64,000 nt of DNA from Candidatus Omnitrophota bacterium (GCA_043800555.1 JAZDMX010000003.1:175531-239530), one strand, 5' to 3'. Numbered from the stretch's first letter, positions 12,668-29,759 are shown. Numbers and translations: made by a program. Notes: generated by a model not told the origin, from the letters alone.

Positions 12668-13978
12668 ATGAAAAACAAGATCAAAGGGAAAATATTTAAA
12701 TTAATCAAGGAATTGTATAAGGCCCAAGCGGGAAGAAAAGAATTTGTCCCCGGCAAAGGGGCAATTAATTACGGCGGCAGGATCTATGATTCCAAAGAGC
12801 TGATAAATCTAGTTGATGCATCGCTTGATTTTTGGCTTACTGCCGGAAACTACGCCCGGGAATTTGAAGGGAAGCTCTCAGGCTTTCTGGGCGTTAAATA
12901 TTGTTTATTGGCTAATTCCGGCTCATCCGCTAACCTTTTGGCCTTAACCGCGTTAACTTCACCGTTGTTAAAAGAAAAGCGGTTAAAGCCGGGTGACGAA
13001 GTAATCACCACTGCCTGCGGTTTTCCTACCACCCTGAACCCGATACTGCAGAATAACCTTGTGCCCGTATTTATTGATGTAGAGCTGGGCAACTATAATA
13101 TTCAGGCAGAGAAGATCGAAAAGGCTATCACCAGGCAAACAAGGGCGATCTTTACCGCCCATACCCTGGGTAACCCGGTAAACATAGATATAGTCAGGAA
13201 AATAGTTAAAAAGCATAATTTGTACTGGGTTGAGGATAATTGCGATAGCCTTGGGTCCAAATATAGGGGTAGCTATACCGGGACATTCGGGGATATTTCC
13301 ACTTGCAGCTTCTATCCTCCTCACCATATAACTATGGGAGAAGGAGGGGCGGTTTTAACAAACAACCCGCTATTTAAAAGGATTGTAATGTCTTTGCGGG
13401 ACTGGGGAAGGGATTGCTGGTGCGAGCCGGGCCAGGACAATACTTGTAAGAAAAGATTCAGCCGGAAATTCGGCCCGTTGCCTTACGGCTATGACCACAA
13501 ATATGTTTATTCCCATATAGGCTATAATTTAAGAGTTACCGATATGCAGGCGGCTGTCGGCTGCGCGCAGTTAGAGAAATTGCCCGGATTTATTGAAGCC
13601 AGGAAACGCAATTTTAAGTTTCTATACGGTATGCTTAAGGAACACGGCGATCATTTTATCCTGCCGCAGGCGCAGGAACATTCCGATCCCAGCTGGTTTG
13701 GTTTTTCGATCCTTCTAAAAGATACGGCACCGTTTAATAGGGCGGATATTGTTAGTTATTTGGAAGGCAGGAAGATAGCCACGAGAATGCTCTTCGGGGG
13801 TAACTTATTGAAGCAACCGGCCTATAAAAACATAAAATACAGGGTGGCGGGAAATTTAAGGAATACGGATTTGGTAATGAACAACCTTTTTTGGATAGGG
13901 GTCTACCCCGGGCTTACCGGCCCCATGCTTGATTATATAGGAAAGTCCTGGGATGCTTTTCTTAAAAAGGCAAAATGA
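12668..13978 (+). CDS. rfbH: NDP-4-keto-6-deoxyhexose 3-dehydrase (RfbH/DdhC/E1 family, PMP-dependent and [2Fe-2S]-containing)
   Basis: Near full-length alignment to Salmonella RfbH: CLLANSGSSANLLALTALTSP, SFYPPHHITMGEGG (His replaces the aminotransferase Lys), and the Fe-S motif DCWCEPGQDNTCKKRF (C-x-C-x7-C retained). Confidence 0.9.
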   Translation: MKNKIKGKIFKLIKELYKAQAGRKEFVPGKGAINYGGRIYDSKELINLVDASLDFWLTAGNYAREFEGKLSGFLGVKYCLLANSGSSANLLALTALTSPLLKEKRLKPGDEVITTACGFPTTLNPILQNNLVPVFIDVELGNYNIQAEKIEKAITRQTRAIFTAHTLGNPVNIDIVRKIVKKHNLYWVEDNCDSLGSKYRGSYTGTFGDISTCSFYPPHHITMGEGGAVLTNNPLFKRIVMSLRDWGRDCWCEPGQDNTCKKRFSRKFGPLPYGYDHKYVYSHIGYNLRVTDMQAAVGCAQLEKLPGFIEARKRNFKFLYGMLKEHGDHFILPQAQEHSDPSWFGFSILLKDTAPFNRADIVSYLEGRKIATRMLFGGNLLKQPAYKNIKYRVAGNLRNTDLVMNNLFWIGVYPGLTGPMLDYIGKSWDAFLKKAK

Positions 13979-14670
13979 AGCTGACCATACTTATAAGCTG
14001 TTTTAATGAGAAAGCGACCATCCTTAAGGCAATCGAGGAGGCCAAAGCCGTTAAGGCCGATAAAGAGATAATTGTCATAGATAATTGTTCGACAGACGGC
14101 ACAAGGCAGATATTGGAGTCGATAAATGCCGATAGCGGCATAAAAATAATATTTAACGCCAGGAATATGGGGGCCGGATATTCCGGCCGCCAGGGCATCC
14201 AGCTTGCCCGGGGAGATTATTTCTACGCTCCCGGAGCCGACCTGGAATATAAAATGGCCGATGTTTGCGGTATGTTGCAAAAAGCCGAGAGCGAGAACCT
14301 GGATGTAGTTTTCGGCTCAAGGCTTTTGGATAAGAAAGATGTCTCCCGGCTGCGTTTAATCAAGCAAAGGCCGTATTGGCTGGGGACGATCATCGCGACA
14401 TTTTTGATAAATGTATTATTCCGCAAGAATTTTACCGATGTCATCGGGACGCATTTGATCAAAACAGGTATTTTAAAGGGATTGGATTGTAGTTCTAGCG
14501 GCCAGTCTTTTATATTCGAATTGGTAAGCAAGTTTTGCAAGAAAAGTTATAAAATAGGGGAAATTAATGTCTGGTATAAGCCCAGGACGCACAAGGAAGG
14601 TAAAACCATCAGGGCGCTTGATATGGCCCCGGCTTTATTAGCTATCTTCCGGGTCAAAATATTTGGTTAG
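13975..14670 (+). CDS. Family 2 glycosyltransferase, polyprenyl-phosphate sugar synthase type (DPM1/ArnC/GtrB-like)
   Basis: KLTILISCFNEKATI...IVIDNCSTDGT. ATGA overlap with rfbH. Confidence 0.8.
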   Translation: MKLTILISCFNEKATILKAIEEAKAVKADKEIIVIDNCSTDGTRQILESINADSGIKIIFNARNMGAGYSGRQGIQLARGDYFYAPGADLEYKMADVCGMLQKAESENLDVVFGSRLLDKKDVSRLRLIKQRPYWLGTIIATFLINVLFRKNFTDVIGTHLIKTGILKGLDCSSSGQSFIFELVSKFCKKSYKIGEINVWYKPRTHKEGKTIRALDMAPALLAIFRVKIFG

Positions 14671-14676
14671 GCAAAT

Positions 14677-16764
14677 ATGTTAATGTTGATTTTAATAAAT
14701 TTGGCGGTAATCTTAAATTCCGTAATTCTTGCCAAGAATCTCTTTAAGGCCAAGGGGGCGGGCGATTTTGTCCTTGTGGCGTTTATCTTGTTTTTTTCCC
14801 AGATAATCCTGGTTGAGTTGATTCTGGGCAGCCTGGGGCTGTTCTATTTCCCGTATATCTTCCTGGCAAATATCTTTATCCTTGGGTTAACGGCATTAGC
14901 TTACCGCCGGAAACCTTTATCATTTCCGGTTAAAGTTGATATCGGGCCTTTTATCGGCAATAACCTGGTTCTATTGGCTTTGGCGGTTTTTGGGTCATTT
15001 TTCCTGGTAAAGTCGTTTATTAATCTAATTAATCCTCCCATAAGCCCGGACAGCCTGCAATACCATCTTGCCTTTCCGGCTACCTGGATAAGAAACGGCA
15101 ATTTAGCCAATCCAATCTGCATATTCGGATCCATGCCTATGGCAATTCCTAATGCGCTGGAAACCAGCGCTACTTCTTTTTACCCCATCAATGCGCAGCT
15201 ATTCTTTGCCTGGCTTATGCTCCCTTTGCGGAATGCCTTTCTAGCAGATTTAGGAGAGTTCCCCTTTTACATTATCGGCATAATAACCGTATATATGATT
15301 TTGAGGAAATTTGGAGTAAAGAAGGAGATGGCTCTTTTGTCCGGTTTCTTGTGGGCCTTGATCCCGAATATCTTTAAGCAGCTTAGAACGGCTTCGCAAA
15401 TAGACCTAATTTGCGCGGTCATGTTCCTGTTAATGGTATACGCTATTCTGTTGTTCAAGGAAGAACCTGGCATGAAGCGCGCGGTATTATTCGGTATTTC
15501 CGCGGGGATCTTCCTGGGGACTAAAGTCATAAATATTGTTTGGTTTATAGCCGCGCTCCCGTTCTTATTATATGTATTTTACAGGTCTTCCAGAGCCCTT
15601 AAATTTGGGGCGGTTAAGATTACCCTTATGTCCGGCAGCATAATTTCTATGGTATTCTTATTCGGCGGGTTCGCTTATATAAGAAATTTTATATTTACGG
15701 GTAACCCGTTTTTCCCGGTAGACTTGAAAATCTTCGGAGTAACTGTTTTTAAGGGGTTACTGGATAGCGCTTCCTACAAGGCTTCGATTGCTTCCGGGGA
15801 CCAGTTTAATTTGGCGAGGATTTTGTTTAAAGAAGGCTTGGGCGTGCAGTTTTTGGGGTTGATTTTACCGGGCATCCTCATTCCGTTTATTTTCTACAAT
15901 CAAATAAGGAAAAAAGCCAAGCCGCTGGGTGGGTACCTGTTATTTCTTATTACGCCTTTTTTAATAATTGCATTGCATGTCATTTTTGTTAATATCTATG
16001 TAGTGAGGTATTTATTCCCGTTTTTAAGCATAGGATTGGTATGCGCCGTAATTTTCATAAACTTGATCGAGCGCAAAGAAAGGTATTTCTACTTCATTGC
16101 CTTTGTTTGTATCCTGGCATCGGCTTCTGAATTGGCGCACCGGGGGGAACTTATTGTTTCTGTTGCGCTAGCGGCTGTCTTATTCGCTACTATGCTTTTG
16201 TTCAAAAAGCAGCTGGTCTCTTTTTATAGAGGCCGGGTTTTCAATAAGGCTTTAGCGGTTTTTTTGATTTTAGGGCTATTCTCGTTAGGTTACCTTAACG
16301 TTTTATATAATAAAGTGGAGTTTGAGCGCTATCCTTTGACTTTTAGCAAAAAAGAAGCCTGGCAGGCGGATATAGCCAGGGGATGGCAGAAACTTAATGA
16401 ATTGACTGATCCCGGGGCGAGGGTCGCTTATACCGGGCGGCAGGAGTTTTACCCTCTTTTTGGCTCGGGGCTGAAAAACCACGTAAAATATGTTTCGGTT
16501 AATGAAAAAGAGGTTGCTCCCTATAATAAATTTGACGGTTCCTTCAGGAGGCTCAAGGATGGTTCTTGTTGGGGTAAAAACCTGAAGAAAGATAAAATTG
16601 AGTATTTATTTGTTGCGCAGCCGTACTTGGATAATAGGGAGTCGCCAGACCCGGAGGCGTTCCCTATTGAGGACGAATGGGCTAAAGCAAGCCCCGGAAA
16701 TTTCAAATTATTGTATAGCAATTCTATGGTCCATATATACCGGGTTTCTTTAAGCGGGGGTTAA
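14677..16764 (+). CDS. Polytopic membrane protein with a large C-terminal extracytoplasmic domain; putative GT-C-fold glycosyltransferase
   Basis: About 12-14 hydrophobic segments over roughly 500 aa, then a ~200-aa soluble tail. Conserved DSLQYH loop motif near the N-terminus. Paralogous to 18909..20957. Confidence 0.55.
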   Translation: MLMLILINLAVILNSVILAKNLFKAKGAGDFVLVAFILFFSQIILVELILGSLGLFYFPYIFLANIFILGLTALAYRRKPLSFPVKVDIGPFIGNNLVLLALAVFGSFFLVKSFINLINPPISPDSLQYHLAFPATWIRNGNLANPICIFGSMPMAIPNALETSATSFYPINAQLFFAWLMLPLRNAFLADLGEFPFYIIGIITVYMILRKFGVKKEMALLSGFLWALIPNIFKQLRTASQIDLICAVMFLLMVYAILLFKEEPGMKRAVLFGISAGIFLGTKVINIVWFIAALPFLLYVFYRSSRALKFGAVKITLMSGSIISMVFLFGGFAYIRNFIFTGNPFFPVDLKIFGVTVFKGLLDSASYKASIASGDQFNLARILFKEGLGVQFLGLILPGILIPFIFYNQIRKKAKPLGGYLLFLITPFLIIALHVIFVNIYVVRYLFPFLSIGLVCAVIFINLIERKERYFYFIAFVCILASASELAHRGELIVSVALAAVLFATMLLFKKQLVSFYRGRVFNKALAVFLILGLFSLGYLNVLYNKVEFERYPLTFSKKEAWQADIARGWQKLNELTDPGARVAYTGRQEFYPLFGSGLKNHVKYVSVNEKEVAPYNKFDGSFRRLKDGSCWGKNLKKDKIEYLFVAQPYLDNRESPDPEAFPIEDEWAKASPGNFKLLYSNSMVHIYRVSLSGG

Positions 16765-16774
16765 CGTAAGGCCG

Positions 16775-17506
16775 ATGGGGGAAATTGTCAATACCGGAGA
16801 ACGGATACTTTTGGAGCAAGAAACGCCTTTAATGGTCGCCCGCCATTTTTGCGCCTATAAATTTGCCAGGGATTTTGTCAAGGATAAGAGCGTTTTAGAC
16901 GCAGGCTGCGGAGAAGGCTATGGCTCGAATTTCTTGGCCGAATACGCCAAAGCGGTTTGGGGGCTCGATTACGATAAAGATATCATCATTTATGCGCAAG
17001 GTAAGTATAATAAGGTTAACCTGCAATTCCTGGCTTTAGATATCAAAGACCTTAGCAGCCTGCATAAGAAATTCGATGTAATATGTTCATTCCAGAATAT
17101 AGAACATATCCGGGATACGGGCAAGTTCTTAAATGACGCCTTGAGCCTGTTGAATGACGATGGCGTATTTATCTGTTCTACCTGTAATATGAAAGATGCT
17201 TCTCCCGGCAGGAAAGAGCCCTCCAATAGGTTCCATGTCAAAGAGTACCTTTTTGACGAGTTTAGAGGCTTGCTCCAGGGGCATTTTAAGAATGTAGAGA
17301 TCTTCGGTTTAAACAGGGGCTTGGCCTTAAAGGCCTTCCGCAGGCTGAAGAAAATCGGCTTGTTTAATTTCTTGCCGGAGAAAATCAATCCGGTTAAGAT
17401 ATTTTTTGCAAAAGCAGGGTGCGGGTATTTCTTTTGGTCCAGGATAAATCTGGATAATTGCCTGGATTTTCTTGCTGTCTGCAGGAAACAGGAGGCCATT
17501 TCTTAA
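16775..17506 (+). CDS. Class I SAM-dependent methyltransferase
   Basis: Motif I VLDAGCGEGYGSNFLA. Confidence 0.75.
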   Translation: MGEIVNTGERILLEQETPLMVARHFCAYKFARDFVKDKSVLDAGCGEGYGSNFLAEYAKAVWGLDYDKDIIIYAQGKYNKVNLQFLALDIKDLSSLHKKFDVICSFQNIEHIRDTGKFLNDALSLLNDDGVFICSTCNMKDASPGRKEPSNRFHVKEYLFDEFRGLLQGHFKNVEIFGLNRGLALKAFRRLKKIGLFNFLPEKINPVKIFFAKAGCGYFFWSRINLDNCLDFLAVCRKQEAIS

Positions 17507-18904
17507 ATGAAAATCGCTTTGGTATATCCGCCGTCCCAGGAATTGAACCTTAAGGGCTATCCGCTTGGGCTGGCCTATTTATCCGCTGCATTAAAACGAA
17601 AACACCGGGTGCAGGTGTATGATTATAACGGCAAAGGGTTTAACAGCAGCCTGAAGTCTTTCTTTAACGCGCTAAAGCTTACCCGGCCCGACTGTCTCGG
17701 AATTTCTTTTAATTCTTTTAACCGTTGGGGGGCCTATAAAATAATCAAAATGGCCAAGAAGGTAAATAAGGATATCAAGGTCGTTTTGGGGGGAGTGCAT
17801 CCCTCAACAATGCGCGATCAGGTTTTTGGACATTTTTTTGACAGCATTGATTTCATTATCCAATCGGAAGGAGAGGAGCCGTTTTATAAATTATGCGCTC
17901 TTCTGGAAGCCGGCGGGGATTACAGGCATATAAGTGGCCTAGTCTATAAAGATACGGAGAAAAGCTTTAAAGCCAATGCCGTGAGCCAGAAGGTGAGTAA
18001 TTTAGACGATTTGGCTATGCCGGATTATTCTTACGCCTCCGCAATGATAAAAAATAGCGGGTTTGCTTATCTTATTACATCCAGGGGTTGCCCGGTTAAT
18101 TGCTCTTTCTGCTCGACATCGTCTTTTTGGGGCCAGAATATACGGATGAATTCCCCGGAGAGAGTAGGCCAGGAAGTCGATTATGTAAAAAGTTTGGGCG
18201 CAAATAGGGTTTTTTTTCATGACGATACTTTTAATCTGGGTATTGAGCGGACTATCAGGTTAGCGCGGGTGCTAAAAGATAAGAAAATAGAGTACGCTAT
18301 CTCTTGCCGCGTTAAGCCGGTTAACGATGAAATGATCGCAGAGTTGGTCGAATCCGGCTGCAGGCATATAACCTGGGGGGTGGAGAGCTTGTCTAGCAAG
18401 ATACTGCAGAGCATAGACAAGAAGATCACCAGGGAAGACGTAAAGAACGCCTTTGATCTTTGCGCTAAATATTCCGACAGGATGTCTACCGGAGGGTTCT
18501 TTTGCGTAGGCGTCCCCGGGGAAACCCAGGAAACAATTAATGAGTCCGCGGACTATCTAAATAAAAACATAAAATCAACTCATGGCCCGGGTGCAAGCAT
18601 GCTTTATATCCTGCCGGGAACCAGAGTTTACGCGGAAATGGTTAAAAATCATAAATTTGACGAAAGATTATGGATTAAATCCGACTCCGTTTATTATTAT
18701 ACTAAAGAGCATAATATGGGGGTTTTGAACTCTTGGCGCAAAAAGATAAATAATAGCGGGATAAGACTGCCGTTTAAATCCAAATATTTTTGGGATTACG
18801 CCTTGCAAGAAATCCGGGAGGATATAAATCCCCTTAAGAGGTCTTTCCGGAAAACCCGGAAGAAACTGACAAGGTTTATTAATATGTTGCGCAACCGGTA
18901 TTAA
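17507..18904 (+). CDS. Cobalamin-binding (class B) radical SAM enzyme
   Basis: N-terminal B12-binding domain (IALVYPP...GEGEE). rSAM motif CPVNCSFC. Confidence 0.85.
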   Translation: MKIALVYPPSQELNLKGYPLGLAYLSAALKRKHRVQVYDYNGKGFNSSLKSFFNALKLTRPDCLGISFNSFNRWGAYKIIKMAKKVNKDIKVVLGGVHPSTMRDQVFGHFFDSIDFIIQSEGEEPFYKLCALLEAGGDYRHISGLVYKDTEKSFKANAVSQKVSNLDDLAMPDYSYASAMIKNSGFAYLITSRGCPVNCSFCSTSSFWGQNIRMNSPERVGQEVDYVKSLGANRVFFHDDTFNLGIERTIRLARVLKDKKIEYAISCRVKPVNDEMIAELVESGCRHITWGVESLSSKILQSIDKKITREDVKNAFDLCAKYSDRMSTGGFFCVGVPGETQETINESADYLNKNIKSTHGPGASMLYILPGTRVYAEMVKNHKFDERLWIKSDSVYYYTKEHNMGVLNSWRKKINNSGIRLPFKSKYFWDYALQEIREDINPLKRSFRKTRKKLTRFINMLRNRY

Positions 18905-18908
18905 TCTT

Positions 18909-20957
18909 ATGCTTATTTTCTTATTGTTAAATATGCTTGTCTTATCCGGCGCATTTCTTATGGCCTGCAGGTTTTTAGAGATCAAAGGCGCCGTTGATTC
19001 TATTATAGCCTTGTTTGCGGTTTATCTTGCCCAGATTGTATTTATCGAGCTTCTCCTGGGGGTATCAACCGTCTTGTGCCTGAAAAATGTTATCTTACTG
19101 GCCGTAGCTTTTTTCCTCGCCGCATATTTGTTGGCCAAAAACAGGCAGGGGGCCAGGCAGCCGTTGAACTTTAGTTTGTATTTCGAGAAGCTGTTAAGTA
19201 ATAAACTCCTTAGCCTTGTTTTCTCCATCGCCGTTTCCTTTGCCGCGGTAAAAATCGTGGTTAATCTCTTGAATCCGCCATTCGGCTGGGATTCGCTTAA
19301 TTACCATTTCACTTTCCCCGTAGAATGGCTTAAGCACGGCAATCTTAATACCCCGATTACGGTATTCGATGATCCTAGCCCGACTTATTACCCTATTAAC
19401 GGAAGCTTATTTTATCTTTGGTTAATAATGCCGTTTAGTTCCGTATTCTTGGCGGATTTAGGGCAGTTGCCGTTTTTTATCATCGCGGTAATTTCTGTTT
19501 ATGGGATTTCCCGGAAAATAGGCTTAAATAAAAAGAATTCATTCTTTGGCGCGCTATTATTTGCCCTTATCCCTAACTTTTTTAAACAGCTGCAAATAGC
19601 CTATGTGGATATAATGGTGGCTGCTTTGTTTTTGGCGTGCGTGAATTATTTACTTATCCTGCGGAAAGAATTTAGCCAGCGTAACGTTTTTATCTATAGT
19701 TTAAGCCTGGGCCTGCTGATAGGGACCAAAACCACGGCTTTACCGTTTAGTATTTTGTTGATTATCCCGTTTTTGGCGGGGTTGGCTAAGAGCGATAAGA
19801 AAATCCGTTTTGGCCTGGTATTCATGTTTTGTATTTTAGTTTTCGGCGGTTTCAGCTATCTAAGGAATTTTATCCAGACGGCTAACCCGGTATATCCGCT
19901 GGATTTTAAATTATTTAATTTGCACATATTTAAGGGCGTCCTGGATAAGTCTGTTTATGCATCGCATTTTACCGGTTCGGATTACTCCCTCGGAAAAATG
20001 CTCTTCCACGAGGGCTTGGGAGCGCAGGCGTTATTCTTGATTTTACCCGGGATTTTCCTGGCTTTACCGGTAACGTTTATTAAAAATAAAAGGAAGCTTG
20101 ATTTTAACTTTTCTTATTTTCTGTTACTGCCTATTTTTATCTATATTGTGTACAGGTATATCGTGCCTTTAGCCAATGTAAGGTATTTGTACGCGATGAT
20201 GGGCTTGGGGGTGATCCTCGGTTTTTATCTGCTGGAGTTGCTGAAAGCCAAAAGATGGCTGATAAGCGTTTTGGTTATTGTTTGCGTTTTGTCTTCTGTC
20301 CCTTCATTAGCTAAGCGCCAGGAATTGGTTTCTGCTATTATCCTTTCGGCGGCGCTTTTCTTGATTCTAATTAATTCCGGTAAAATCAGTTGGTTTAGGA
20401 GAAACAGGGTCTTTTGGGCTATGATTATTGCCTTAGCTACCAGCTTGCTTTTTTGGGCAAAGGGGTTCTATTCGGCAAACGAGTTCCCCCGTTATTATAA
20501 GATGGCAAGGTATTCCGGTTTCTGGCCGGATGCCGCAAAAGCCTGGGATTGGTTAAATATAAACAGCGTGGGAAATAACATCGCTTATACGGGCAGGGCT
20601 GTGCCGTTCCCATTATACGGAAGCGGCCTGAAGAATAACGTATACTACGTTTCCGTAAACAAAACCCAACCTGCGAAATTACATTATTTTAGCGGCAGCA
20701 AGTATGAGTATTGCCCCGGGTTTGAAAGCCTTTCTAAGGCCATAAACCAGGGTAATAATTACCGGGGAAATGCCGATTACGATGTTTGGTTGAGCAATTT
20801 GTTACAGGCCAATACCGATTATCTTTTTGTCTATTCGCTGCAGCAGACAAAAGACACGATATTCCCGGTTGAAGATGCCTGGGCAATTGCCCATCCGGAT
20901 AAGTTTAATCCGGTATTTTCAAACAAGACGATACATATATATAAGGTGGCCAAGTGA
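18909..20957 (+). CDS. Polytopic membrane protein, paralog of 14677..16764; putative GT-C-fold glycosyltransferase
   Basis: Shares LNPPFGWDSLNYHFTFPVEWLKHGNL and the C-terminal YTGRAVPFPLYGSGLKNNVYYVSVN with the paralog. Confidence 0.55.
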   Translation: MLIFLLLNMLVLSGAFLMACRFLEIKGAVDSIIALFAVYLAQIVFIELLLGVSTVLCLKNVILLAVAFFLAAYLLAKNRQGARQPLNFSLYFEKLLSNKLLSLVFSIAVSFAAVKIVVNLLNPPFGWDSLNYHFTFPVEWLKHGNLNTPITVFDDPSPTYYPINGSLFYLWLIMPFSSVFLADLGQLPFFIIAVISVYGISRKIGLNKKNSFFGALLFALIPNFFKQLQIAYVDIMVAALFLACVNYLLILRKEFSQRNVFIYSLSLGLLIGTKTTALPFSILLIIPFLAGLAKSDKKIRFGLVFMFCILVFGGFSYLRNFIQTANPVYPLDFKLFNLHIFKGVLDKSVYASHFTGSDYSLGKMLFHEGLGAQALFLILPGIFLALPVTFIKNKRKLDFNFSYFLLLPIFIYIVYRYIVPLANVRYLYAMMGLGVILGFYLLELLKAKRWLISVLVIVCVLSSVPSLAKRQELVSAIILSAALFLILINSGKISWFRRNRVFWAMIIALATSLLFWAKGFYSANEFPRYYKMARYSGFWPDAAKAWDWLNINSVGNNIAYTGRAVPFPLYGSGLKNNVYYVSVNKTQPAKLHYFSGSKYEYCPGFESLSKAINQGNNYRGNADYDVWLSNLLQANTDYLFVYSLQQTKDTIFPVEDAWAIAHPDKFNPVFSNKTIHIYKVAK

Positions 20958-21652
20958 AGCTTTCTATAATTATCCCCGCGCATAACGAAGAAGAAAACAT
21001 CGGCCAGGTAATTGAGCGAGTGGAAGAAAAAATACGGTTTCCCTTTGATTTGATTGTGGTAAATGACCATTCTACAGACAGGACCGCGGATATTGTCGCT
21101 AGCCTTGCGGAGAAATTCAATAATGTTATTTTGGTTGAGAATAAGTTTGCACCTAGCTTCGCCAATGCGGTTAAAACCGGATTGGCGAGCGCGAAAACCG
21201 AGGTGGTCGTGCCGGTAATGGGGGACCTCTGCGATGATTTGGAGACGATACCGCTTATGCTTGAAAAGATCCTAGAAGGGTTTGATGTCGTTTGCGGGGC
21301 CCGTTATATAAAAGGCGGCTTGAGGCTCGGGGGTTCGCGTTTAAAAGGCCTTTTCTCGGCATTTGCCGGCTGGTCGCTGCATTATCTGGTGGGCATACCT
21401 ACCCACGATATAGCTAATGCCTTCAAAATGTATAGAAAAAAAGTCGTAGATAGCCTGGAGATAGAGTCGAGGGGGTTTGAAATTTCCATGGAATTACCGC
21501 TTAAGGCGTATTTTTTGGGGTTTAAGGTCACGGAAGTGCCTACTATATGGCGGGAGAGGGAGAAAGGCAAATCCAGTTTTAGGATGCTCAATTTGGCCCC
21601 GAATTATTCCCGGTGGTATTTGTGGGCGATAAAAAGAAAGATACGAGGTTAG
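20954..21652 (+). CDS. Family 2 glycosyltransferase, polyprenyl-phosphate sugar synthase type
   Basis: KLSIIIPAHNEEENI...LIVVNDHSTDRT. ATGA overlap with the upstream gene. Confidence 0.8.
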   Translation: MKLSIIIPAHNEEENIGQVIERVEEKIRFPFDLIVVNDHSTDRTADIVASLAEKFNNVILVENKFAPSFANAVKTGLASAKTEVVVPVMGDLCDDLETIPLMLEKILEGFDVVCGARYIKGGLRLGGSRLKGLFSAFAGWSLHYLVGIPTHDIANAFKMYRKKVVDSLEIESRGFEISMELPLKAYFLGFKVTEVPTIWREREKGKSSFRMLNLAPNYSRWYLWAIKRKIRG

Positions 21653-21654
21653 CT

Positions 21655-22332
21655 ATGCCGCTGCTTTCGATAATTGTGCCTATTTATAATGAAGCAAAGA
21701 CCGTTAGGCAGATACTTTCCAAGATTAATTCCGTTAATATCGATAAGGAGATCATTATTGTCGATGACGGATCTACCGACGGGGCAGATAAGATACTGGG
21801 GGATATCCGCTGCGATAACTTAAAAGTTATACACCATATTTCCAACCGGGGCAAGGGCGCGGCTTTTTTGACCGGTTTAGCTAACGCAAAAGGAGAGTTT
21901 GCCATAATCCAGGATGCTGATTTGGAATACGACCCGAATGATTATTTAACGCTATTTGATTCGATAAAGCGTAATAATGCGGATATGGTCCTGGGGGCGC
22001 GGTTTCTTAAGGGTTATCGCGGGCTCCTGATGCATAGGCTGGGGAACAGGTTTTTGACTTATACAATGAATTTTCTTTTTGGCTCCAAGCTTAATGACTA
22101 CGCTACCTGTTATAAGCTTGCCCGGAGGGTTACATTTGAGTCGTTAAGCCTTCGCGCTACGGGATTTGAGGTGGATGCGGAGATAATTTGCAAGGCTTTG
22201 AAGAAAAAACTTAAAATAAAGGAAGAGCATGTTTCTTATCACCCGCGAGCTTATAGTGAAGGGAAGAAAATCCGTTTTAAGGACGCTCTTTGGGCGGTAT
22301 TTTATATGGCTAAATTCAGGTTTATAAAGTAG
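21655..22332 (+). CDS. Family 2 glycosyltransferase, polyprenyl-phosphate sugar synthase type
   Basis: MPLLSIIVPIYNEAKTV...IIIVDDGSTDG. Start taken at the ATG at 21655 just after the upstream stop. Confidence 0.8.
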   Translation: MPLLSIIVPIYNEAKTVRQILSKINSVNIDKEIIIVDDGSTDGADKILGDIRCDNLKVIHHISNRGKGAAFLTGLANAKGEFAIIQDADLEYDPNDYLTLFDSIKRNNADMVLGARFLKGYRGLLMHRLGNRFLTYTMNFLFGSKLNDYATCYKLARRVTFESLSLRATGFEVDAEIICKALKKKLKIKEEHVSYHPRAYSEGKKIRFKDALWAVFYMAKFRFIK

Positions 22333-22355: not shown

Positions 22356-23591
22356 ATGAAAGAGAAAACCTTAAAAGTGTGCGATTTTGTTATTTATTGG
22401 TCAATTGTCATTATGCCGTTTTCCGTAGCTATCGCTCCCGGAGTTGCCAATACGTTTATCGGTTTATTCTCGGCATTTTTCGTAATCAAGAAGATTATTG
22501 AAAAGAAACCCTTAGGCGTTGATAAGGCGGTATTAGTGCCTTTTATTTTCCTGTTCGTTATCTCCTTGTTTTCTTTCGTAAACTCCGTGAGTTTTAGCGC
22601 AAGTTTTAACGGGATCATAAAATTGCTTAAGTATTTCTTAATTTTCGCGGTATGCTGCCAGGAGATTCGGGATAAGGAACATATAGGAAGAATTGTTTTC
22701 TCGATTTGTTGCGGTATTTCTTTGATGGCTATCGATGCGATTTGGCAGATTTTCTCGGGGTATGATTTTGTCCATGGTAACGCCCTGCAATCCTGCATTA
22801 TAGATTTAGCCCGGCCCACGGCGTCTTTTCCCAATCCTAATGTTTTCGGCGTATATATGACGGCGCTTGCCCCGCTGGCCATCGGGCTGACAATATTTTA
22901 TTTTAAGGGCGGCAAAAGGGCGCTGATGTTTTTAACTAGCCTCCTGGCTATTTCCGGGGTATATTTAACTCTTTCGCGCGGGGCAGGGTTGGCTATTTAT
23001 GCTTCTATTTTATTCCTATCTGTATCCGGAAAGAAGAAATTCTTGACCTTTGCCCTGGTAGCTATCATTATAATTTTTCCCTTTGTAATGCCTAAGCACA
23101 TAAAACAATGGGCAAAAGAAATAAATTATAATCCGCTTGTATTTATGTGCAACCAGGACAGGATCAGTATCTATAGCAACACCGTGAATATGATTAAGCA
23201 TCATCCGTTTCTGGGTGTAGGCATAAATACCTTCTCCAGGAATTACGGAAAGTATAAAACAGAGTCTGCCGAGAAATATGCCCATACCCCGGATACGATA
23301 TACTCGCATAATATATACCTCCAGATGGCGGGAGAAACGGGGCTATTGGGGCTATTTTCGTTTTTGTGGTTTTTATTCGTTGTTTTCAAGCAAGCGATGC
23401 GCTCTTTCCGCAAGCTGGATGATCCATACCTGAAAGCAGCCGCAATAAGTTTAGTTGCCTGTATTATCGGTTTCTTGGTTAACGGGCTTACCGAAACCAG
23501 CCTCTATTATGCCCGCGTGAGCATGGTCTTTTGGTATTTAATAGGAGTTTCACTGGCTTTAGGCAGATTAAGCGTAAGCCATGAAAAATAG
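22356..23591 (+). CDS. O-antigen ligase/polymerase family membrane protein (Wzy_C domain)
   Basis: Polytopic, with the diagnostic SHNIYLQMAGETGLLGL motif of WaaL/Wzy-type proteins. Confidence 0.7.
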   Translation: MKEKTLKVCDFVIYWSIVIMPFSVAIAPGVANTFIGLFSAFFVIKKIIEKKPLGVDKAVLVPFIFLFVISLFSFVNSVSFSASFNGIIKLLKYFLIFAVCCQEIRDKEHIGRIVFSICCGISLMAIDAIWQIFSGYDFVHGNALQSCIIDLARPTASFPNPNVFGVYMTALAPLAIGLTIFYFKGGKRALMFLTSLLAISGVYLTLSRGAGLAIYASILFLSVSGKKKFLTFALVAIIIIFPFVMPKHIKQWAKEINYNPLVFMCNQDRISIYSNTVNMIKHHPFLGVGINTFSRNYGKYKTESAEKYAHTPDTIYSHNIYLQMAGETGLLGLFSFLWFLFVVFKQAMRSFRKLDDPYLKAAAISLVACIIGFLVNGLTETSLYYARVSMVFWYLIGVSLALGRLSVSHEK

Positions 23592-24765
23592 GAGGAATCA
23601 TTTCTTAATCATAGCAGTCGCTATATTAATCAAGTTTTTCTTGTTTGCTTTTATCCTTCAGCATGCCCCGGAAAGCCGCTTTCAAAACGATTCCCGCGAT
23701 TATCTGGAAACCGCTCAATGTTTATCGTCTAGGATGGCCTTTGCTAAGGCCGGCGAGGATGGTTTGCCGGTTTATGAGTATTATCGGACTCCCGGGTATC
23801 CGTTTTTTCTCGCATTCTTGATGGGTGGGCTTAAGCTTTCGGTTAACGGAGTAATATGCGTTCAAATCTTGCTGGCGATATTAGCGGCCTGGGTTATTTA
23901 CCGGGTTGCTTTACAAATTGAACCGCGGATAGCGTTTTTAAGCTCGGCGATATTTATTTACGAGCCTTCGGTTTCAATTTTTTCGTTGCAAATCCTGTCA
24001 GAGGTTTTGTTCATGTTCGTAATGGCCTTATTCTTGTTGAGTTTTATTAGTTACCTGAAAAACAGGAAAATTGGTAAAATCGTGCTTGCTGCGCTGTTAT
24101 TGGCCGCGGCTACCTATGTGCGCCCGATCAGCTATTATCTGGGATGGGTAGTTGCTGTTTTTATTATTTATGCGGGCACCCGCAAGGGTATAAAGAAGGC
24201 AGTAATCCATTCGCTGGCCTTTTTGGTCATTATCTATAGCTTTCTGGGCCTCTGGCAGGAGAGGAATTATAAGCTTTTCGGACAAAAATATTTTTGCAAC
24301 GTAGTTGAATCAGGGTATAAATATTTTGGCTTATATAAAAGTTATTCCAGGGATAAAGACGCGCAAGCCAAGTCAATGGCCCCGGTTTCTTATTATGCCA
24401 AGGTTACGGCGCGTTCGTTCCTTAATCTTATGGCCCGGCCCGGCCCTTTTAAGTACTTCAAATCGAAAACTCTGTCCGTAGCCGGGAACGCCCTAGCTTA
24501 TCCCTGGATGGTTTTTTGGTTGGCTGGTTTGGTTATCGGTTGTCTGAGATGCGGCCGCAATATTTATTACCAGTTTATTATTTTAAATATAGCTTATTTC
24601 ATTGCCGCTTCCATAGGAGGGGTGAGCTTACTGGCAAGCGAGAGGTTTAGGGTCCCAATGATGCCGTTTATTGCGGTTATCTGCGCTTACGGATGGTTAA
24701 CATTAAACAGGAAGAGGGGCTGTTTTTCTGTCTGCGCCGGGAAGAAAAACAGCCCCTCTTCCTAA
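23581..24765 (+). CDS. Polytopic membrane protein; probable ArnT/PMT-like GT-C glycosyltransferase
   Basis: N-terminal TM helix followed by a periplasmic loop, NDSRDYLETAQ, that resembles the DExRY motif of GT39/GT83. Roughly 10 TM segments. Confidence 0.45.
   Translation: MKNRRNHFLIIAVAILIKFFLFAFILQHAPESRFQNDSRDYLETAQCLSSRMAFAKAGEDGLPVYEYYRTPGYPFFLAFLMGGLKLSVNGVICVQILLAILAAWVIYRVALQIEPRIAFLSSAIFIYEPSVSIFSLQILSEVLFMFVMALFLLSFISYLKNRKIGKIVLAALLLAAATYVRPISYYLGWVVAVFIIYAGTRKGIKKAVIHSLAFLVIIYSFLGLWQERNYKLFGQKYFCNVVESGYKYFGLYKSYSRDKDAQAKSMAPVSYYAKVTARSFLNLMARPGPFKYFKSKTLSVAGNALAYPWMVFWLAGLVIGCLRCGRNIYYQFIILNIAYFIAASIGGVSLLASERFRVPMMPFIAVICAYGWLTLNRKRGCFSVCAGKKNSPSS
24709..24763. repeat. Perfect 20-bp-stem inverted repeat (AGGAAGAGGGGCTGTTTTTC ... 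GAAAAACAGCCCCTCTTCCT) overlapping the last 19 codons and stop of the 23581..24765 gene
   Basis: Exact reverse-complement arms with a 15-nt loop. The stop codon TAA begins at 24763. Confidence 0.75.
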
Positions 24766-24777
24766 TTTACCGGAAAA

Positions 24778-26337
24778 GTGAATATTCTAGGAATATCTTG
24801 TTTTTGTTACAATAGCGCCGCCTGCCTGCTTCGGGATGGCGAAATCGTAGCGGCAGTTCGAGAAGAGCGTTTCAGCCGGAGGAAATACGATTCCCGTTTT
24901 CCCCGTCAGGCTATTGATTGGTGCCTTAATTATGGCGGCGTCAACCTAAATGGCCTGGATTATATAGCCTGCAGCCTTGATAATATTGCCGGTAAGCTAA
25001 TGGCCAGCTGTAATTTTGGTTTAACCTTTGGCGCAAAAACAAAATTCTTCCCGCCCCGGGATTCTTTTCTTTCTGGCGCTTTTTACCCGTCTCCTTTTAA
25101 TGAATCGGCAATCCTGGTTAATGCGGCAGGCGCAAGGCCTCTCTTTGGCCATGGCATAGGAAACCGGATCCATAAGCTCGATAAGGCAAATTATAAATTT
25201 TCTTTAGGCTTGTTATATTCGGCGGTTAGCCGTTACCTGGGTTTTAATAACTACGGGGATGAATTTAAGGTAATGGGCCTGGCAGCTTACGGAAAGCCGA
25301 AATATAAGGATATTATCTTAAAGTATAAAGAAAAATCCCCTTTTTATTTATCGGAGCGGCGAAAGGGTTTTTCCTCTTTTTTGGCTTGGTCGCGCGGGCC
25401 CGGAGGCATAACCCAATACCATATGGATGTAGCCGCTTCATTGCAGGAAGCCGCTAGCCAAGAAGTTTTGCAGATTACTCAAGGCCTGCATAAGGAAACT
25501 AAGAGCGATAACCTTTGTTTGGCAGGAGACCTGGCTTTAAATTGCCTGATTAATTCCGATATAATCAGGCAAGGTTTGTTTAAGAATATCTGGATCCAGC
25601 CGGCAAGCGATAATGCCGGCCGCGCAGTCGGGGCGGCGTTATCCGTTTGGTATGAAAATAACGGGCGTGACGCCGGGCGCCTAAACGATATGATGCAAGG
25701 TAGCTTGCTTGGCCCGGCATACAGCGATGCTTATATCGAAAGCTTTCTAAAAAAGGCGGGCGCTTCCTATAGAAGATTAGCTGACTCAGAGATAGCCGTA
25801 GCCGGCTCGGATTTAATCGCGCGGGGAAAGATCGTCGGCTGGTTTCAGGGAAAAGCCGAGTTTGGCCCGCGCGCCTTAGGGGACCGTTCAATACTCGGAG
25901 ATAGCCGCGATTTGAGCATGCCTAAGAAACTGAATCTTGAGGTAAAGATGCGGGAGCCTTTCCGGCCGTTTGCCCCCAGCGTATTATGGGAAAAGTCGGG
26001 TGAATATTTTGATTTTGACAGGGAGAGCCCGTATATGCTGTTTACCGCAAAGGCCAGAGCCAACAAAAAGAATGAGATTCCTGCGGTAGTGCATGCGGAC
26101 GGCTCCAGCCGCCTGCAAACCATTAAAAAAGAAGATAATCCCTTGTTTTATGATTTACTAAATGAATTCTATAAAAAAACGGGTTGTCCTGTTATAATAA
26201 ATACGTCGTTTAATGCCGGCCGGGAGCCTATGGTTTTGACTCCCGAAGATGCCTATAGGTGCTTTAAGTCCGCAAAGATTGATTGTTTGTTTTTGGGGCC
26301 TTTCTTGTTAGAGAAAAGCCCGCCTGGCTGCGGGTAA
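24778..26337 (+). CDS. Carbamoyltransferase (NodU/CmcH family)
   Basis: N-terminus MNILGISCFCYNSAACLLRDGEIVAAVREERFSR (Kae1/YgjD-like fold). C-terminal carbamoyltransferase domain PAVVHADGSSRLQTI. Confidence 0.85.
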   Translation: MNILGISCFCYNSAACLLRDGEIVAAVREERFSRRKYDSRFPRQAIDWCLNYGGVNLNGLDYIACSLDNIAGKLMASCNFGLTFGAKTKFFPPRDSFLSGAFYPSPFNESAILVNAAGARPLFGHGIGNRIHKLDKANYKFSLGLLYSAVSRYLGFNNYGDEFKVMGLAAYGKPKYKDIILKYKEKSPFYLSERRKGFSSFLAWSRGPGGITQYHMDVAASLQEAASQEVLQITQGLHKETKSDNLCLAGDLALNCLINSDIIRQGLFKNIWIQPASDNAGRAVGAALSVWYENNGRDAGRLNDMMQGSLLGPAYSDAYIESFLKKAGASYRRLADSEIAVAGSDLIARGKIVGWFQGKAEFGPRALGDRSILGDSRDLSMPKKLNLEVKMREPFRPFAPSVLWEKSGEYFDFDRESPYMLFTAKARANKKNEIPAVVHADGSSRLQTIKKEDNPLFYDLLNEFYKKTGCPVIINTSFNAGREPMVLTPEDAYRCFKSAKIDCLFLGPFLLEKSPPGCG

Positions 26338-26393
26338 GCGGGTTTTGCCTTACGGCAGCCGCAGGCAAAGAAGCGGTTTTTGTGAAATTCGGA

Positions 26394-27293
26394 ATGATTA
26401 AGAACATTTTAGCCATACGCGATGACAGATTCGGAGAATTCTTGCTTAATATCCCGGCTTTTCGGGCATTAAAAGAGTCGTATCCCGGAGGAAATCTTAC
26501 TTTAGCCGTAAGCCCTGGGGTTAAAGAACTGGCCGAATGTATTGAATGCGCCGATGAAATAGCGGTTTGGGATGATGGTTTCAGGGGAAATTTAAGAAAA
26601 CAGAAATTTGATGTTTGCGTTGTTTTAAATCCTACGCAAGAGGCCCACTGGGCTGTTTTTCGGGCAGGGATCCCCCGGCGGATTGGTTATAACAGGAAAT
26701 GGGGGATTTTATTGACCCATAAGATGCCGGATAATAAATGCTTGGGCCTTAAGCATGAAGTAGAGTATAATTTGGATTTGGTTGCCTTGATTGGCGCAAC
26801 AACCGCTGATAAGGCGGTTTGTTTGGGTAAACTGCCCCAAAATGATAAGGCCCAATATGCCGGGGCAATTGCGGTGCACCCTTTTACCAGCGATAGCCTG
26901 AAACAGTGGCCAATTGAGAGGTTCAGGGGCCTGGCGCAGCGTATTGCGCGGGAGCTTAAGCTAAAGGCGGTAGTAGTCGGAGCGTCGGAGGAAAGTAAGG
27001 AGTTTGATAATTTGGGAGAGAATGTGATTAATTTGATTAACAAGACTTCCCTTGTTGAACTGGCGCAAATCCTTAAACAAAGCAAATTGCTTGTTTCCTG
27101 CGACAGCGGCCCGATGCATCTGGCCGCGGCAGTGGGGACGCCGGTCGTGGCGCTTTTTAGGAATGATTTACCGGGAAAAACTGCCCGGCGCTGGGGGCCC
27201 TGGGGCCAAGGCCATAGCGTGATAGAAAAAAGCAGTCTTTGGGAGATAACGGTTGATGAGTTGTCAGATAGGATAAGGAGTGTCTTGCAGTGA
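26394..27293 (+). CDS. Family 9 glycosyltransferase (ADP-heptose:LPS heptosyltransferase-like)
   Basis: IKNILAIRDDRFGEFLLNIPAFRALK ... SCDSGPMHLAAAVGTP. Start taken at the ATG at 26394, downstream of the carbamoyltransferase stop. Confidence 0.8.
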   Translation: MIKNILAIRDDRFGEFLLNIPAFRALKESYPGGNLTLAVSPGVKELAECIECADEIAVWDDGFRGNLRKQKFDVCVVLNPTQEAHWAVFRAGIPRRIGYNRKWGILLTHKMPDNKCLGLKHEVEYNLDLVALIGATTADKAVCLGKLPQNDKAQYAGAIAVHPFTSDSLKQWPIERFRGLAQRIARELKLKAVVVGASEESKEFDNLGENVINLINKTSLVELAQILKQSKLLVSCDSGPMHLAAAVGTPVVALFRNDLPGKTARRWGPWGQGHSVIEKSSLWEITVDELSDRIRSVLQ

Positions 27294-28687: not shown

Positions 28688-29759
28688 GCGGTTCTTGATA
28701 ATAAATCCTTTTGGCATCGGGGATGTTTTATTCACTACCCCGGTAATCCGGGCCTTAAGGGAAAAATACCTGGATTGTTTTGTCGGGTATTGGTGTAATC
28801 GCAGGGTGCGCCCATTATTGGGCTCAAGCGCTAAGATAAATACGCTTTTTGATTTGAGCCGGGGAGATATCAAGAAAATATACCGGAAATCTTTTTTGCG
28901 CGGGCTTTGGGAAACTTTAAAACTCGGATGGCAGATTAAAAAGGGCAACTTTAACATTTGTTTTGACTTTTCCCTGGACTACCGCTATAGTTTATTTGCG
29001 AAAATCCTAGGGATACGCCGGAGGATAGGTTTTAATTATAAGAATAGAGGCAGGTTCCTTACGGAGAGGATAGGGTTAACTTCCTATAGCGATAAGCACG
29101 TAGTTGACTATTACCTGGATCTATTGCGATTTTTAAATATAGAAGCGCAAGATAAATCCCTGGAGTTGGCGGTTCCCGGGTCTGCGCAGGAACATGCGCA
29201 AGATATGCTGGCCGCCAGAGGGATTGAAAAAGGCGATTTGGTTGTGGGGATTGCTGCCGGAGCAGGGGGAAGCTGGGGGGTGAACGCCGGTTATAAGCAT
29301 TGGCCGGCATTAAGATTTGCGCAGGTGGCAGATAAGCTCGCCGCCGAATTTAAGGCAAAAATCGTAATTCTGGGAGATGAAACCGAACAGCCGATTTCCG
29401 AAATCATTGTTAATGCTATGGCCTATGAGCCTATAAATTTAACCGGTAAGCTTAAGCTAAAGTGGCTTCCGGCGGTAATCAAGAACCTGGACCTTTTGAT
29501 ATCCAATGACGGTGGCCCGATGCATATAGCCTCTGCTTTGGGCGTAAAGACTGTTTCTATATTTGGCCCGGTGAGCGAAGTTGTTTACGGCCCGTATCCG
29601 GATAAGAGGAGGCATGCGGTATTAAAATGGGATATGGAGTGCCGGCCATGTTACAGGAATTTTAGCCTGGCGGTTTGCGCTAAAGATAAAGAGTGTTTGC
29701 GCTCGGTAAGCGTTGAAGATGTGCTTACGGCCGCGCGGATGATGATTAAAAATAACTAA
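28647..29759 (+). CDS. Family 9 glycosyltransferase (heptosyltransferase-like), second copy
   Basis: KRFLIINPFGIGDVLFTTPVIRALREKY ... SNDGGPMHIASALGVKT. Confidence 0.8.
   Translation: MKMILKENAGQNPKRFLIINPFGIGDVLFTTPVIRALREKYLDCFVGYWCNRRVRPLLGSSAKINTLFDLSRGDIKKIYRKSFLRGLWETLKLGWQIKKGNFNICFDFSLDYRYSLFAKILGIRRRIGFNYKNRGRFLTERIGLTSYSDKHVVDYYLDLLRFLNIEAQDKSLELAVPGSAQEHAQDMLAARGIEKGDLVVGIAAGAGGSWGVNAGYKHWPALRFAQVADKLAAEFKAKIVILGDETEQPISEIIVNAMAYEPINLTGKLKLKWLPAVIKNLDLLISNDGGPMHIASALGVKTVSIFGPVSEVVYGPYPDKRRHAVLKWDMECRPCYRNFSLAVCAKDKECLRSVSVEDVLTAARMMIKNN

Follow-up and report, generated by a model that had tools for sequence, protein, structure and literature searches.

A predicted GT-C fold glycosyltransferase family encoded beside DPMS-type GT2 genes in an envelope glycan cluster of an uncultured Omnitrophota bacterium

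Gene content and order of the cluster

The window, the whole stretch of 64,000 nucleotides that was analysed, derives from the MAG of an uncultured Omnitrophota bacterium and carries a tight, single-strand gene cluster of LPS type. The 36 genes of the cluster share a strand and are nowhere separated by more than 117 nt, with several overlapping at stop and start; the 43 kb of the cluster include genes for RfbH, a Wzy_C protein, two GT9 proteins, ManC, a GmhB-like HAD protein and a SIS_2 protein. Lipid A biosynthesis genes were not found in the window, nor was an initiating phosphoglycosyl transferase or an ABC exporter found in the cluster. A Pfam search of the genes from 162 to 43372 detected no flippase of the GtrA, SMR/ArnEF, MATE or Wzx type in the 43-kb cluster, and the flippase for a lipid-linked donor could be encoded elsewhere.

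The open reading frames for the GT2 proteins, the proteins of about 690 residues, the methyltransferase and the B12-radical-SAM enzyme were all recovered on the + strand at the positions assigned to them by an earlier note. The series is preceded by a gene encoding an RfbH-type CDP-4-keto-6-deoxyglucose 3-dehydrase of the DegT fold (12668..13978, +; NCBIfam NF011936 RfbH, 703 bits against a cut-off of 423), whose stop overlaps the start of the first GT2 gene, GT2a (13975..14670, +; 231 residues). Downstream are situated memA (14677..16764, +; 695 residues), a class-I SAM-dependent methyltransferase gene (16775..17506, +; 243 residues; Pfam Methyltransf_31/23/11/25) and a gene encoding a class B cobalamin-binding radical SAM enzyme (17507..18904, +; 465 residues; Pfam B12-binding and Radical_SAM). 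The domain assignments of the last two bear out the earlier description, including that of a third B12-radical-SAM enzyme after those at 7416 and 9716; its NCBIfam matches were all far below the cut-offs. These genes are followed by memB (18909..20957, +; 682 residues), whose stop overlaps the start of GT2b (20954..21652, +; 232 residues), and by GT2c (21655..22332, +; 225 residues; the Pfam open reading frame also from 21613). Next comes a gene for a Wzy_C family membrane protein of the O-antigen ligase/polymerase type (22356..23591, +; Pfam PF04932, E 2.7e-21; NCBIfam RfaL and O-glycosylation-ligase matches below cut-off). Just outside the region delimited by the earlier note lies a third, smaller GT-C gene of the PMT_2 family (23581..24765, +; 394 residues; Pfam PMT_2, 29.1 bits against a cut-off of 26.1). 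An LPS-core context is provided by a ManC-type gene with a GT9 heptosyltransferase-like gene on either side (26283..29759, +; Pfam Glyco_transf_9 twice, NTP_transferase/MannoseP_isomer; NCBIfam heptosyltransferase I/II/III matches below cut-off).

Much of this organization recurs in related genomes. Most of 29 related loci share the order GT2, memA, (methyltransferase, B12-radical-SAM), GT2, Wzy_C and GT9, and a DPMS-like GT2 gene adjoins memA or is near it in nearly all of them, as well as being nearby in the distant relatives L031 and L032. The order TPP enzyme, RfbH, GT2a, memA was found again in L004, L005, L007 and L028, while L006, L022 and L025 retained RfbH, GT2a and memA with an inserted gene or without the TPP gene in the fetched stretch; a GT9 gene directly abuts memA in L025 and L028. 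In 11 of the 29 loci, memA is directly followed by the methyltransferase gene. The most frequent downstream neighbour of memA was the B12-radical-SAM ortholog, situated directly after it or past the methyltransferase in 14 of the 29; compared with 465 residues here, the ortholog has 474 in L008 and is cut to 354 in L018. The Wzy_C gene directly followed GT2c in 15 of the 29 loci. The sugar on which GT2a and memA act probably originates from the RfbH pathway.

DPMS-type GT2 proteins and the question of duplication

Pfam Glycos_transf_2 (PF00535) was identified in GT2a (E 1.9e-26), GT2b (E 1.4e-24) and GT2c (E 3e-33), in agreement with the three GT2 genes described earlier. Their assignment to the DPM1/GtrB type was likewise upheld, as the best PDB match of all three was the dolichol-phosphate-mannose synthase (DPMS) of P. 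furiosus (PfDPMS, 5mlz) over the whole catalytic domain (GT2a, E 3.5e-7, residues 1-208; GT2b, E 6.7e-23, residues 1-210; GT2c, E 1.6e-15, residues 4-204), with alignments extending through the interface-helix region. The second-best match of GT2b was ArnC (E 1.5e-13, residues 2-214). The best NCBIfam models were AglJ, PpgS, dolichyl-phosphate hexose transferase and ArnC, all below their equivalog cut-offs; GT2a scored best with AglJ and PpgS, both below cut-off, and GT2c reached 104.6 bits with AglJ, again below cut-off. We therefore describe GT2a as DPMS/PpgS-type, GT2b as DPMS/ArnC-type and GT2c as DPMS/AglJ-type. At the DxD position, GT2c has DAD, while GT2a (GAD) and GT2b (MGD) are without the first Asp; these variants are conserved in orthologs, including the non-canonical PGADLEY of GT2a and the QDADLEYDPN of GT2c, and the second Asp is retained throughout. 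GT2a-c showed no hydrophobic segment, and all three are without membrane helices. The cluster contains no GacJ-like small partner gene, and its gaps leave no room for an additional one. GT2a would be a polyprenyl-phosphate sugar synthase paired with memA.

The earlier description of the locus as duplicated modules proved overstated. GT2a and GT2b are only 25% identical (GT2a and GT2c, 32%), the gene order is GT2-memA in one pair versus memB-GT2 in the other, and across related genomes the memB-GT2b pair looks like an optional insertion into a commoner arrangement, being found again in L001, L002, L005 and L032. Given the low GT2 identity, the reversed order and the optional character of memB-GT2b, we rejected a simple tandem duplication of a GT2 and GT-C pair. 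With the third GT-C gene at 23581-24765, the stretch therefore holds three DPMS-like GT2 and three GT-C genes. The product of the third gene carries D-S-R-D-Y directly after its first, single helix, and its hhalign comparison with the memA family profile gave a probability of 58% (E 1e-4; memA 193-405 on residues 94-322).

Fold, topology and conserved residues of memA and memB

The two large membrane proteins are full-length paralogs, as had been proposed, with 35% identity in an end-to-end alignment of 718 columns (E 2e-125), a similarity far above chance level. The term "giant" applied to them earlier does not fit, since about 690 residues is an ordinary size for the GT-C fold. For memA, 16 membrane helices are predicted, and the topology obeys the positive-inside rule (17 Lys/Arg per 63 inside-loop residues versus 7 per 77 outside-loop residues). 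A three-helix N-terminal extension (memA residues 1-75, 14677..14901, +; DSSP helices 2-22, 28-52 and 58-75) precedes the canonical first GT-C helix and is aligned across the whole family. At the other end, the conserved periplasmic domain that had been put at about 200 residues is present, although its length is closer to 150 residues after the last helix (memA 546-695; memB approximately 537-682); in memA this predicted alpha/beta domain (16312..16761, +) is a candidate acceptor-binding domain. We also considered whether the N-terminal extension could be a GacJ/DUF2304-like protein that became fused and activates the helix-less GT2s. This idea was unsupported: DUF2304 matched one of 30 fragments (E 9.7e-4) and was absent from the 25 most-matched families in 85 further N-terminal fragments, giving one match in 115 overall, and similar scores were obtained on these fragments for plainly spurious families (Tetraspanin and FA_desaturase, for instance).

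Structure modelling of both proteins, which the earlier note had suggested against ArnT, PglB and PMT folds, matched the polytopic memA and memB to solved GT-C enzymes. The best fold match of memB was ArnT, not a PMT. AftD, AftA, AftB and EmbA were also among the fold matches, with the Emb/Aft enzymes scoring lower than ArnT, PMT and AglB. A transporter or polymerase fold, the outcome that would have spoken against the earlier proposal, was rejected on the same searches, and both proteins show the GT-C fold.

Judged by sequence, memA and memB lie outside the ArnT, PMT and OST families. Neither reached a curated cut-off in Pfam or NCBIfam, and no NCBIfam ArnT match was obtained; memA scored 23.4 bits with Pfam PMT_2, under the cut-off of 26.1, and memB had no Pfam match at all. 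A MIR domain or PF02366 (PMT) was found in neither protein, and the WWDxG motif that oligosaccharyltransferases (STT3/PglB/AglB, GT66) carry in their C-terminal periplasmic domain, likewise absent from both, occurred in one of 126 family sequences. Weak links to the PMT_2 clan do exist at sequence level: distant family members pass PMT_2, one of them also PMT (PF02366), and one relative was named "glycosyltransferase family 39 protein" by NCBI. No sequence link to a solved GT-C enzyme emerged when all PDB chains were searched by phmmer (queries memA, memB and the distant relative P0238) or by profiles built from alignments A1 (34 sequences) and A2 (70 sequences); only spurious helical matches (Orai, designed proteins) were returned. 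The memA family profile recovered 6,444 representatives (50% identity) at E up to 0.001 and 599 at E up to 1e-30. Close homologs are listed as "hypothetical protein" and lack precomputed Pfam domains, and the family is unannotated. A faint precomputed match to PF26626/DUF8201, a family for which we found no mention in the literature, was noted on relatives.

The D-S-L-x-Y-H motif reported earlier is present in both proteins, as D125-S-L-Q-Y-H130 in memA (DSLQYH; 15049..15066, +) and D128-S-L-N-Y-H133 in memB (DSLNYH; 19290..19307, +; nearly invariant in alignment A3). It is located after the fourth helix rather than in the first loop of the protein; three extra helices precede it, and the loop is the counterpart of the first periplasmic loop in a canonical GT-C enzyme. 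The conserved Asp sought there was found. In a diverse set of 126 sequences from the family, made up of memA, memB and 124 library representatives, 97% keep the motif Asp and 98% keep H130; the Asp follows a membrane helix directly, in a loop predicted to be periplasmic. D125, H130, W137, D243, K283, R336/N337 and R444 of memA are each kept in 95-99% of the 126, and all of them fall on the predicted periplasmic side. In solved GT-C structures, the catalytic Asp comes after the first helix (PMC11127046). D125 is a candidate catalytic base, and from topology and conservation we infer that it sits in the catalytic pocket. D191 of "LADLGE" was rejected as a second catalytic acid, being invariant only in close homologs and Asn, Arg or Asp family-wide; D243 is the preferred candidate.

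Proposed function, alternatives and comparison with known systems

An ArnC/ArnT-like reading of the locus is supported at the level of fold and context. Overall, we favour, with some reserve, a system in which memA and memB move a polyprenyl-phosphate-linked sugar onto an envelope glycan in the periplasm, the GT2s load the carrier and the methylating enzymes tailor the sugar. GT2a-c, lacking helices, would be cytoplasmic-face synthases charging the carrier from nucleotide sugars. GT2a, directly after RfbH, probably handles a 3,6-dideoxyhexose-type sugar from the upstream genes, GT2b would serve memB, and GT2c may act with memA or with the GT-C at 23581. Tailoring of the sugar by the methyltransferase and the B12-radical-SAM enzyme would most likely be cytoplasmic, taking place on the nucleotide or on the lipid carrier before flipping. 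As inner-membrane GT-C glycosyltransferases, memA and memB would then take a single sugar from polyprenyl-phosphate on the periplasmic side and attach it to an envelope glycan, with the LPS core or outer part as the likeliest acceptor. Gene content, paralogy, the GT-C fold of both proteins, the conserved periplasmic Asp, the DPMS-type similarity of the GT2s and the conserved order are observed here; we infer the nature of carrier, sugars and acceptor (LPS or protein), the GT2/GT-C pairing and the role of both methylating enzymes. Several results speak against the preferred reading: the missing flippase and GacJ-like partner genes, the lack of membrane helices in the GT2s, the loss of the first DxD Asp in GT2a and GT2b, the GT2 scores below the NCBIfam equivalog cut-offs, and the failure of profile searches to connect memA or memB with a solved GT-C enzyme.

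The acceptor could differ from the one preferred here. If memA and memB were PMT-like protein O-glycosyltransferases, the polyprenyl-phosphate sugar would go to Ser/Thr of secreted or envelope proteins and not to LPS; we regard this as unlikely, since the loop-1 Asp-Glu pair of PMT is Asp-Ser here, the MIR domain is missing, the closest fold for memB is that of ArnT, and a C-terminal periplasmic globular domain is typical of ArnT and OST, not of bacterial PMT. The neighbours (RfbH, GT9, ManC) are also of LPS type, a GT9 gene even adjoining memA in two related loci. Similarly improbable, in our view, is that the GT-Cs build or decorate a non-LPS glycan (for example of a capsule, S-layer or cell wall), perhaps repeatedly, like mycobacterial Emb/Aft or Gram-positive GacL/YfhO. 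Such a role would fit the presence in a single cluster of three (possibly four) GT-C genes together with three GT2 genes for carrier loading, as well as the Aft and Emb enzymes among the fold matches, and a cluster without an initiating phosphoglycosyl transferase, Wzx or ABC exporter fits successive periplasmic additions of single sugars; however, the conserved neighbours are a heptosyltransferase-like GT9, a GmhB-like HAD and an O-antigen-ligase-type gene, and the Emb/Aft fold scores are the lower ones.

The same missing initiating transferase and Wzx weigh against the GT2s being ordinary Leloir transferases that assemble an undecaprenyl-diphosphate oligosaccharide, which memA and memB would transfer or polymerise en bloc in an OST- or ligase-like manner. 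The near-absence of WWDxG from the family and the GT2s' closest structural relatives, the carrier-loading DPMS and ArnC aligned through the interface-helix region, make this highly unlikely. That memA and memB are non-enzymes, transporters or scaffolds of similar helical-bundle architecture, finds its sole support in the lack of sequence-level matches to characterised enzymes, and we consider it extremely improbable. A bolder version of the preferred periplasmic reading would have a new GT-C family at CAZy level transfer to LPS, in the periplasm and from polyprenyl-phosphate, a 3,6-dideoxyhexose that is branched or C-methylated (yersiniose-like, supplied by the upstream RfbH, TPP-enzyme and radical-SAM genes), with the B12-radical-SAM enzyme and methyltransferase methylating the lipid-linked sugar and the three-helix extension replacing the missing anchor/activator or flippase; taken as a whole, this is speculative and doubtful. 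Known dideoxyhexoses are added in the cytoplasm, from CDP-sugars.

With this proposal, a large family of unannotated membrane proteins gains a class of function, and uncultured Omnitrophota probably decorate their envelope by a lipid-carrier, periplasmic route with unusual sugars from a radical-SAM-rich cluster. The ArnC/ArnT pathway consists of an undecaprenyl-phosphate-L-Ara4N synthase and a GT83 lipid A transferase; its relatives include LgmA/LgmB, FlmF2/FlmK and RgtE/RgtA-D. In contrast to ArnT, memA and memB are not members of GT83 by sequence (PMT_2 below cut-off in memA, absent in memB) and have three extra N-terminal helices, while GT2a-c have no counterpart of the membrane helices found at the C-termini of ArnC, GtrB and PfDPMS. 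An ArnE/F-type flippase gene and a deformylase gene are also missing here, and the sugar is probably a dideoxyhexose rather than aminoarabinose. When compared to PMT (GT39), memA and memB differ by Asp-Ser instead of Asp-Glu, the lack of MIR, the C-terminal periplasmic domain and the LPS-type context.

Short GT2s without membrane helices also serve as carrier-loading enzymes in the GacI/GacJ/GacL system of Streptococcus pyogenes and the PpgS/Rv3632 system of mycobacteria, in which the synthase works with a three-helix partner, GacJ or Rv3632, of DUF2304 (bioRxiv 10.1101/180810). For GT2a and GT2c, PpgS belongs to the highest-scoring NCBIfam models, and as with GacL, a GT-C would use the product outside the cytoplasm. 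Unlike in those systems, a three-helix partner gene is absent, and the extension of memA and memB has no reliable similarity to DUF2304.

A similar outline is seen in the three-component periplasmic glycosylation systems, GtrA/GtrB/GtrX and the Citrobacter ORF15/ORF14/ORF12 system, founder of GT136 (PMC11127046). There, as proposed here, the cytoplasm supplies a lipid-linked monosaccharide donor, and the final transfer falls to a GT-C that carries an extra periplasmic domain at its C-terminus. The flippase component was not found in the present cluster, and the predicted synthase is of DPMS type and not a phosphoribose synthase. As with GT136 (PMC11127046), memA and memB represent GT-C proteins without sequence similarity to established GT families, recognised by their fold, and if characterised they would probably found a new CAZy GT-C family in the same way. 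They constitute a new family within a well-known type of system, and the understanding of that system type is unchanged.

Gene content and type of the locus

Annotation of the window revealed 36 consecutive plus-strand genes between positions 162 and 43372, none separated from the next by more than 117 nt and several overlapping at their stop and start codons. According to Pfam and NCBIfam, the upstream part comprises genes encoding an acetolactate-synthase-like TPP enzyme (162-2027), an epimerase/dehydratase, a DUF362 protein, a C-methyltransferase, four radical-SAM proteins, two of them with a B12-binding domain, and an RfbH-type CDP-4-keto-6-deoxyglucose 3-dehydrase of the DegT fold (12668-13978), which adjoins the first short glycosyltransferase gene, GT2a. 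The latter matches RfbH at 703 bits (NCBIfam cut-off 423) and is not a transaminase. Downstream, Pfam identified a Wzy_C gene (22356-23591) and a small PMT_2 gene (23581-24765), a carbamoyltransferase, two GT9 heptosyltransferase-like genes with a ManC-type gene, a second DegT gene with a further GT2, and a GmhB-like HAD with a GT28-like gene. The locus is of the LPS/O-antigen type. A ligase-type Wzy_C gene is present, yet 162-43372 holds neither an initiating phosphoglycosyl transferase nor a Wzx flippase or an ABC exporter.

Several further genes deserve mention. A 188-aa SIS_2 protein (52048-52614) has the size and domain of the phosphoheptose isomerase GmhA, which fits a heptose-containing LPS core. 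A GT2 gene is apparently split between two frames, 5130-5660 (176 aa, GT2 domain) and 5672-6187 (171 aa, no Pfam match), and is a pseudogene with a frameshift or else the result of misassembly; single longer ORFs of 254-320 aa in two related loci (L015 and L024) match the first fragment best. The 165-residue ORF at 9270-9767 has a weak NUDIX match (E 1.3e-3) and runs 52 nt into the second B12-radical-SAM gene as annotated, so that the real start of this gene may be further downstream. In the 764-aa protein encoded at 41078-43372, a membrane region resembling MFS proteins (Pfam MFS_1, 26.4 bits against a cut-off of 33.4) precedes a spermine/spermidine-synthase domain.

Fold, family and conserved residues of memA and memB

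The genes memA (14677-16764, 695 aa) and memB (18909-20957, 682 aa) encode large membrane proteins that the earlier note had described as paralogs, with gene coordinates that were all correct. The paralogy was borne out by a full-length alignment (35% identity, E 2e-125), and the shared motif was found as DSLQYH at 15049-15066 in memA and DSLNYH at 19290-19307 in memB. The memA product has a 100% identical database entry, named "hypothetical protein", from a Candidatus Omnitrophota MAG. Neither protein reached the curated Pfam/NCBIfam cut-off of any family: memA scored 23.4 bits on PMT_2 (Pfam cut-off 26.1), and memB gave a weak LIC_10190 match alone. Likewise, a sequence search of PDB chains, family profiles included, returned no match for either, and membership tests rejected their assignment to ArnT/GT83, PMT/GT39, and OST/GT66. 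At the level of fold, the 22 best Foldseek matches of memB were all GT-C chains with a probability of 1.00, transporters reaching at most 0.33, while the matches of memA also include PIG-M, ALG12, STT3B, AftD, and PglB, all of them GT-C. A transporter or polymerase fold, which would have spoken against the earlier reading, was obtained for neither protein; both show the GT-C fold.

A memA-family profile search retrieved 6444 representatives (50% identity) at E ≤0.001 and 599 at E ≤1e-30. Distant members pass the PMT_2 cut-off, one also passes that of PMT, one is named "glycosyltransferase family 39 protein" at NCBI, and some relatives show a faint DUF8201 match. The family is thus a divergent branch near the PMT_2 clan, mostly without annotation. 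Elsewhere in the window, a polytopic membrane protein of 458 aa (36379-37755), encoded between fmt and two GalT/HIT-like genes, has a weak GT87 match (19.9 bits versus a cut-off of 25) and may be a fourth GT-C-type transferase.

The topology of memA was derived from the helices of the predicted model and the positive-inside rule. Three N-terminal helices (2-22, 28-52, and 58-75) are predicted to precede a core of 13 helices, after which the C-terminal domain (546-695) would lie in the periplasm; Lys and Arg account for 17 of 63 residues in the short cytoplasmic loops and 7 of 77 in the periplasmic loops. Across 126 aligned sequences (124 family representatives, memA, and memB), conservation was highest at P347 (100%) and W137 (99%), followed by H130, D243, and K283 (98% each), D125 and N337 (97% each), R336 (96%), and R444 (95%), and the predicted topology places all of them on the periplasmic face. 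D125 is a conserved acidic residue in a predicted periplasmic loop, of the kind that the earlier note had proposed to look for. It lies seven residues past core helix 1, the same place past the first core helix as the catalytic Asp of solved GT-C enzymes (PMC11127046). The geometry of the pocket is inferred from topology and conservation. In the small PMT_2 protein, the motif D-S-R-D-Y comes straight after a single first helix, and hhalign pairs memA 193-405 with residues 94-322 of this protein (E 1e-4, probability 58%). This favours a reading of the three N-terminal helices in memA and memB as an addition to the core.

Short GT2 genes and conserved gene order

Pfam confirmed the domains of the three short GT2 genes, GT2a (13975-14670), GT2b (20954-21652), and GT2c (21655-22332, most plausibly starting at the ATG at 21655), as well as those of the methyltransferase (16775-17506) and the B12-radical-SAM protein (17507-18904). 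The GT2 products comprise 225-232 residues each, and no hydrophobic segments were found in any of them. Their best PDB match was the dolichol-phosphate-mannose synthase of P. furiosus, covering the whole catalytic domain, with E values of 3.5e-7 (GT2a), 6.7e-23 (GT2b), and 1.6e-15 (GT2c); ArnC was second best for GT2b (E 1.5e-13). The top NCBIfam models were AglJ, PpgS, dolichyl-phosphate hexose transferase, and ArnC, all under their equivalog cut-offs. The DxD position reads DAD in GT2c, GAD in GT2a, and MGD in GT2b, the last two variants being retained in the respective orthologs.

When 29 related Omnitrophota-type loci were compared, the usual order was sugar genes, a DPMS-like GT2, memA, the methyltransferase and 465-residue B12-radical-SAM genes in some arrangements, GT2c, Wzy_C, and GT9. 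RfbH, GT2a, and memA come in this order in seven loci, four of which carry the TPP enzyme just upstream, and GT9 directly adjoins memA in L025 and L028. The memB-GT2b pair occurs in some loci only (L001, L002, and L005) and in the more distant L032, again beside Wzy_C and GT2 genes, and in L031 another distant relative has additional PMT_2 proteins and one short GT2 for neighbours. The functional association of GT2 with GT-C genes is therefore conserved. The "duplicated modules" of the earlier note did not stand as a recent duplication, since GT2a and GT2b share just 25% identity and the GT2 gene comes before memA but after memB.

Proposed route and comparison with known systems

The known lipid-carrier route is the most likely mechanism for this locus. 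A DPMS-type GT2 would move a nucleotide sugar onto polyprenyl phosphate at the cytoplasmic face, the lipid-linked sugar would be flipped across the membrane, and on the periplasmic side the GT-C enzyme would pass it to an acceptor of the envelope. The RfbH pathway yields 3,6-dideoxyhexoses, and the sugar handled by GT2a and memA probably derives from it; together with the TPP enzyme (162-2027), RfbH suggests a branched, yersiniose-like 3,6-dideoxyhexose. The methyltransferase and the B12-radical-SAM protein need cytoplasmic cofactors and therefore most likely act before flipping. The genomic context by itself favours LPS as the acceptor, a protein or another glycan being possible alternatives. 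Two pieces are missing from the scheme, a flippase and a means of anchoring the GT2s in the membrane. Regarding long relatives of these GT2s, GT2c-like ORFs upstream of memA in L008, L016, and L029 reach 507-527 residues, about twice the usual length, which suggests fusion with an extra domain, and GT2_TM_C is present in a relative from an ENA contig; such fusions might reveal how the short GT2s are anchored.

PpgS and GacI act together with a small partner protein of three helices (bioRxiv 10.1101/180810). GT2a, GT2b, and GT2c resemble them in being without membrane helices and differ in that their cluster has no such partner gene. The memA and memB proteins represent a new family without annotation working inside a well-known scheme. 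The observation of the earlier note is real, and its ArnC/ArnT-like interpretation largely right, with support at the level of fold and gene context.
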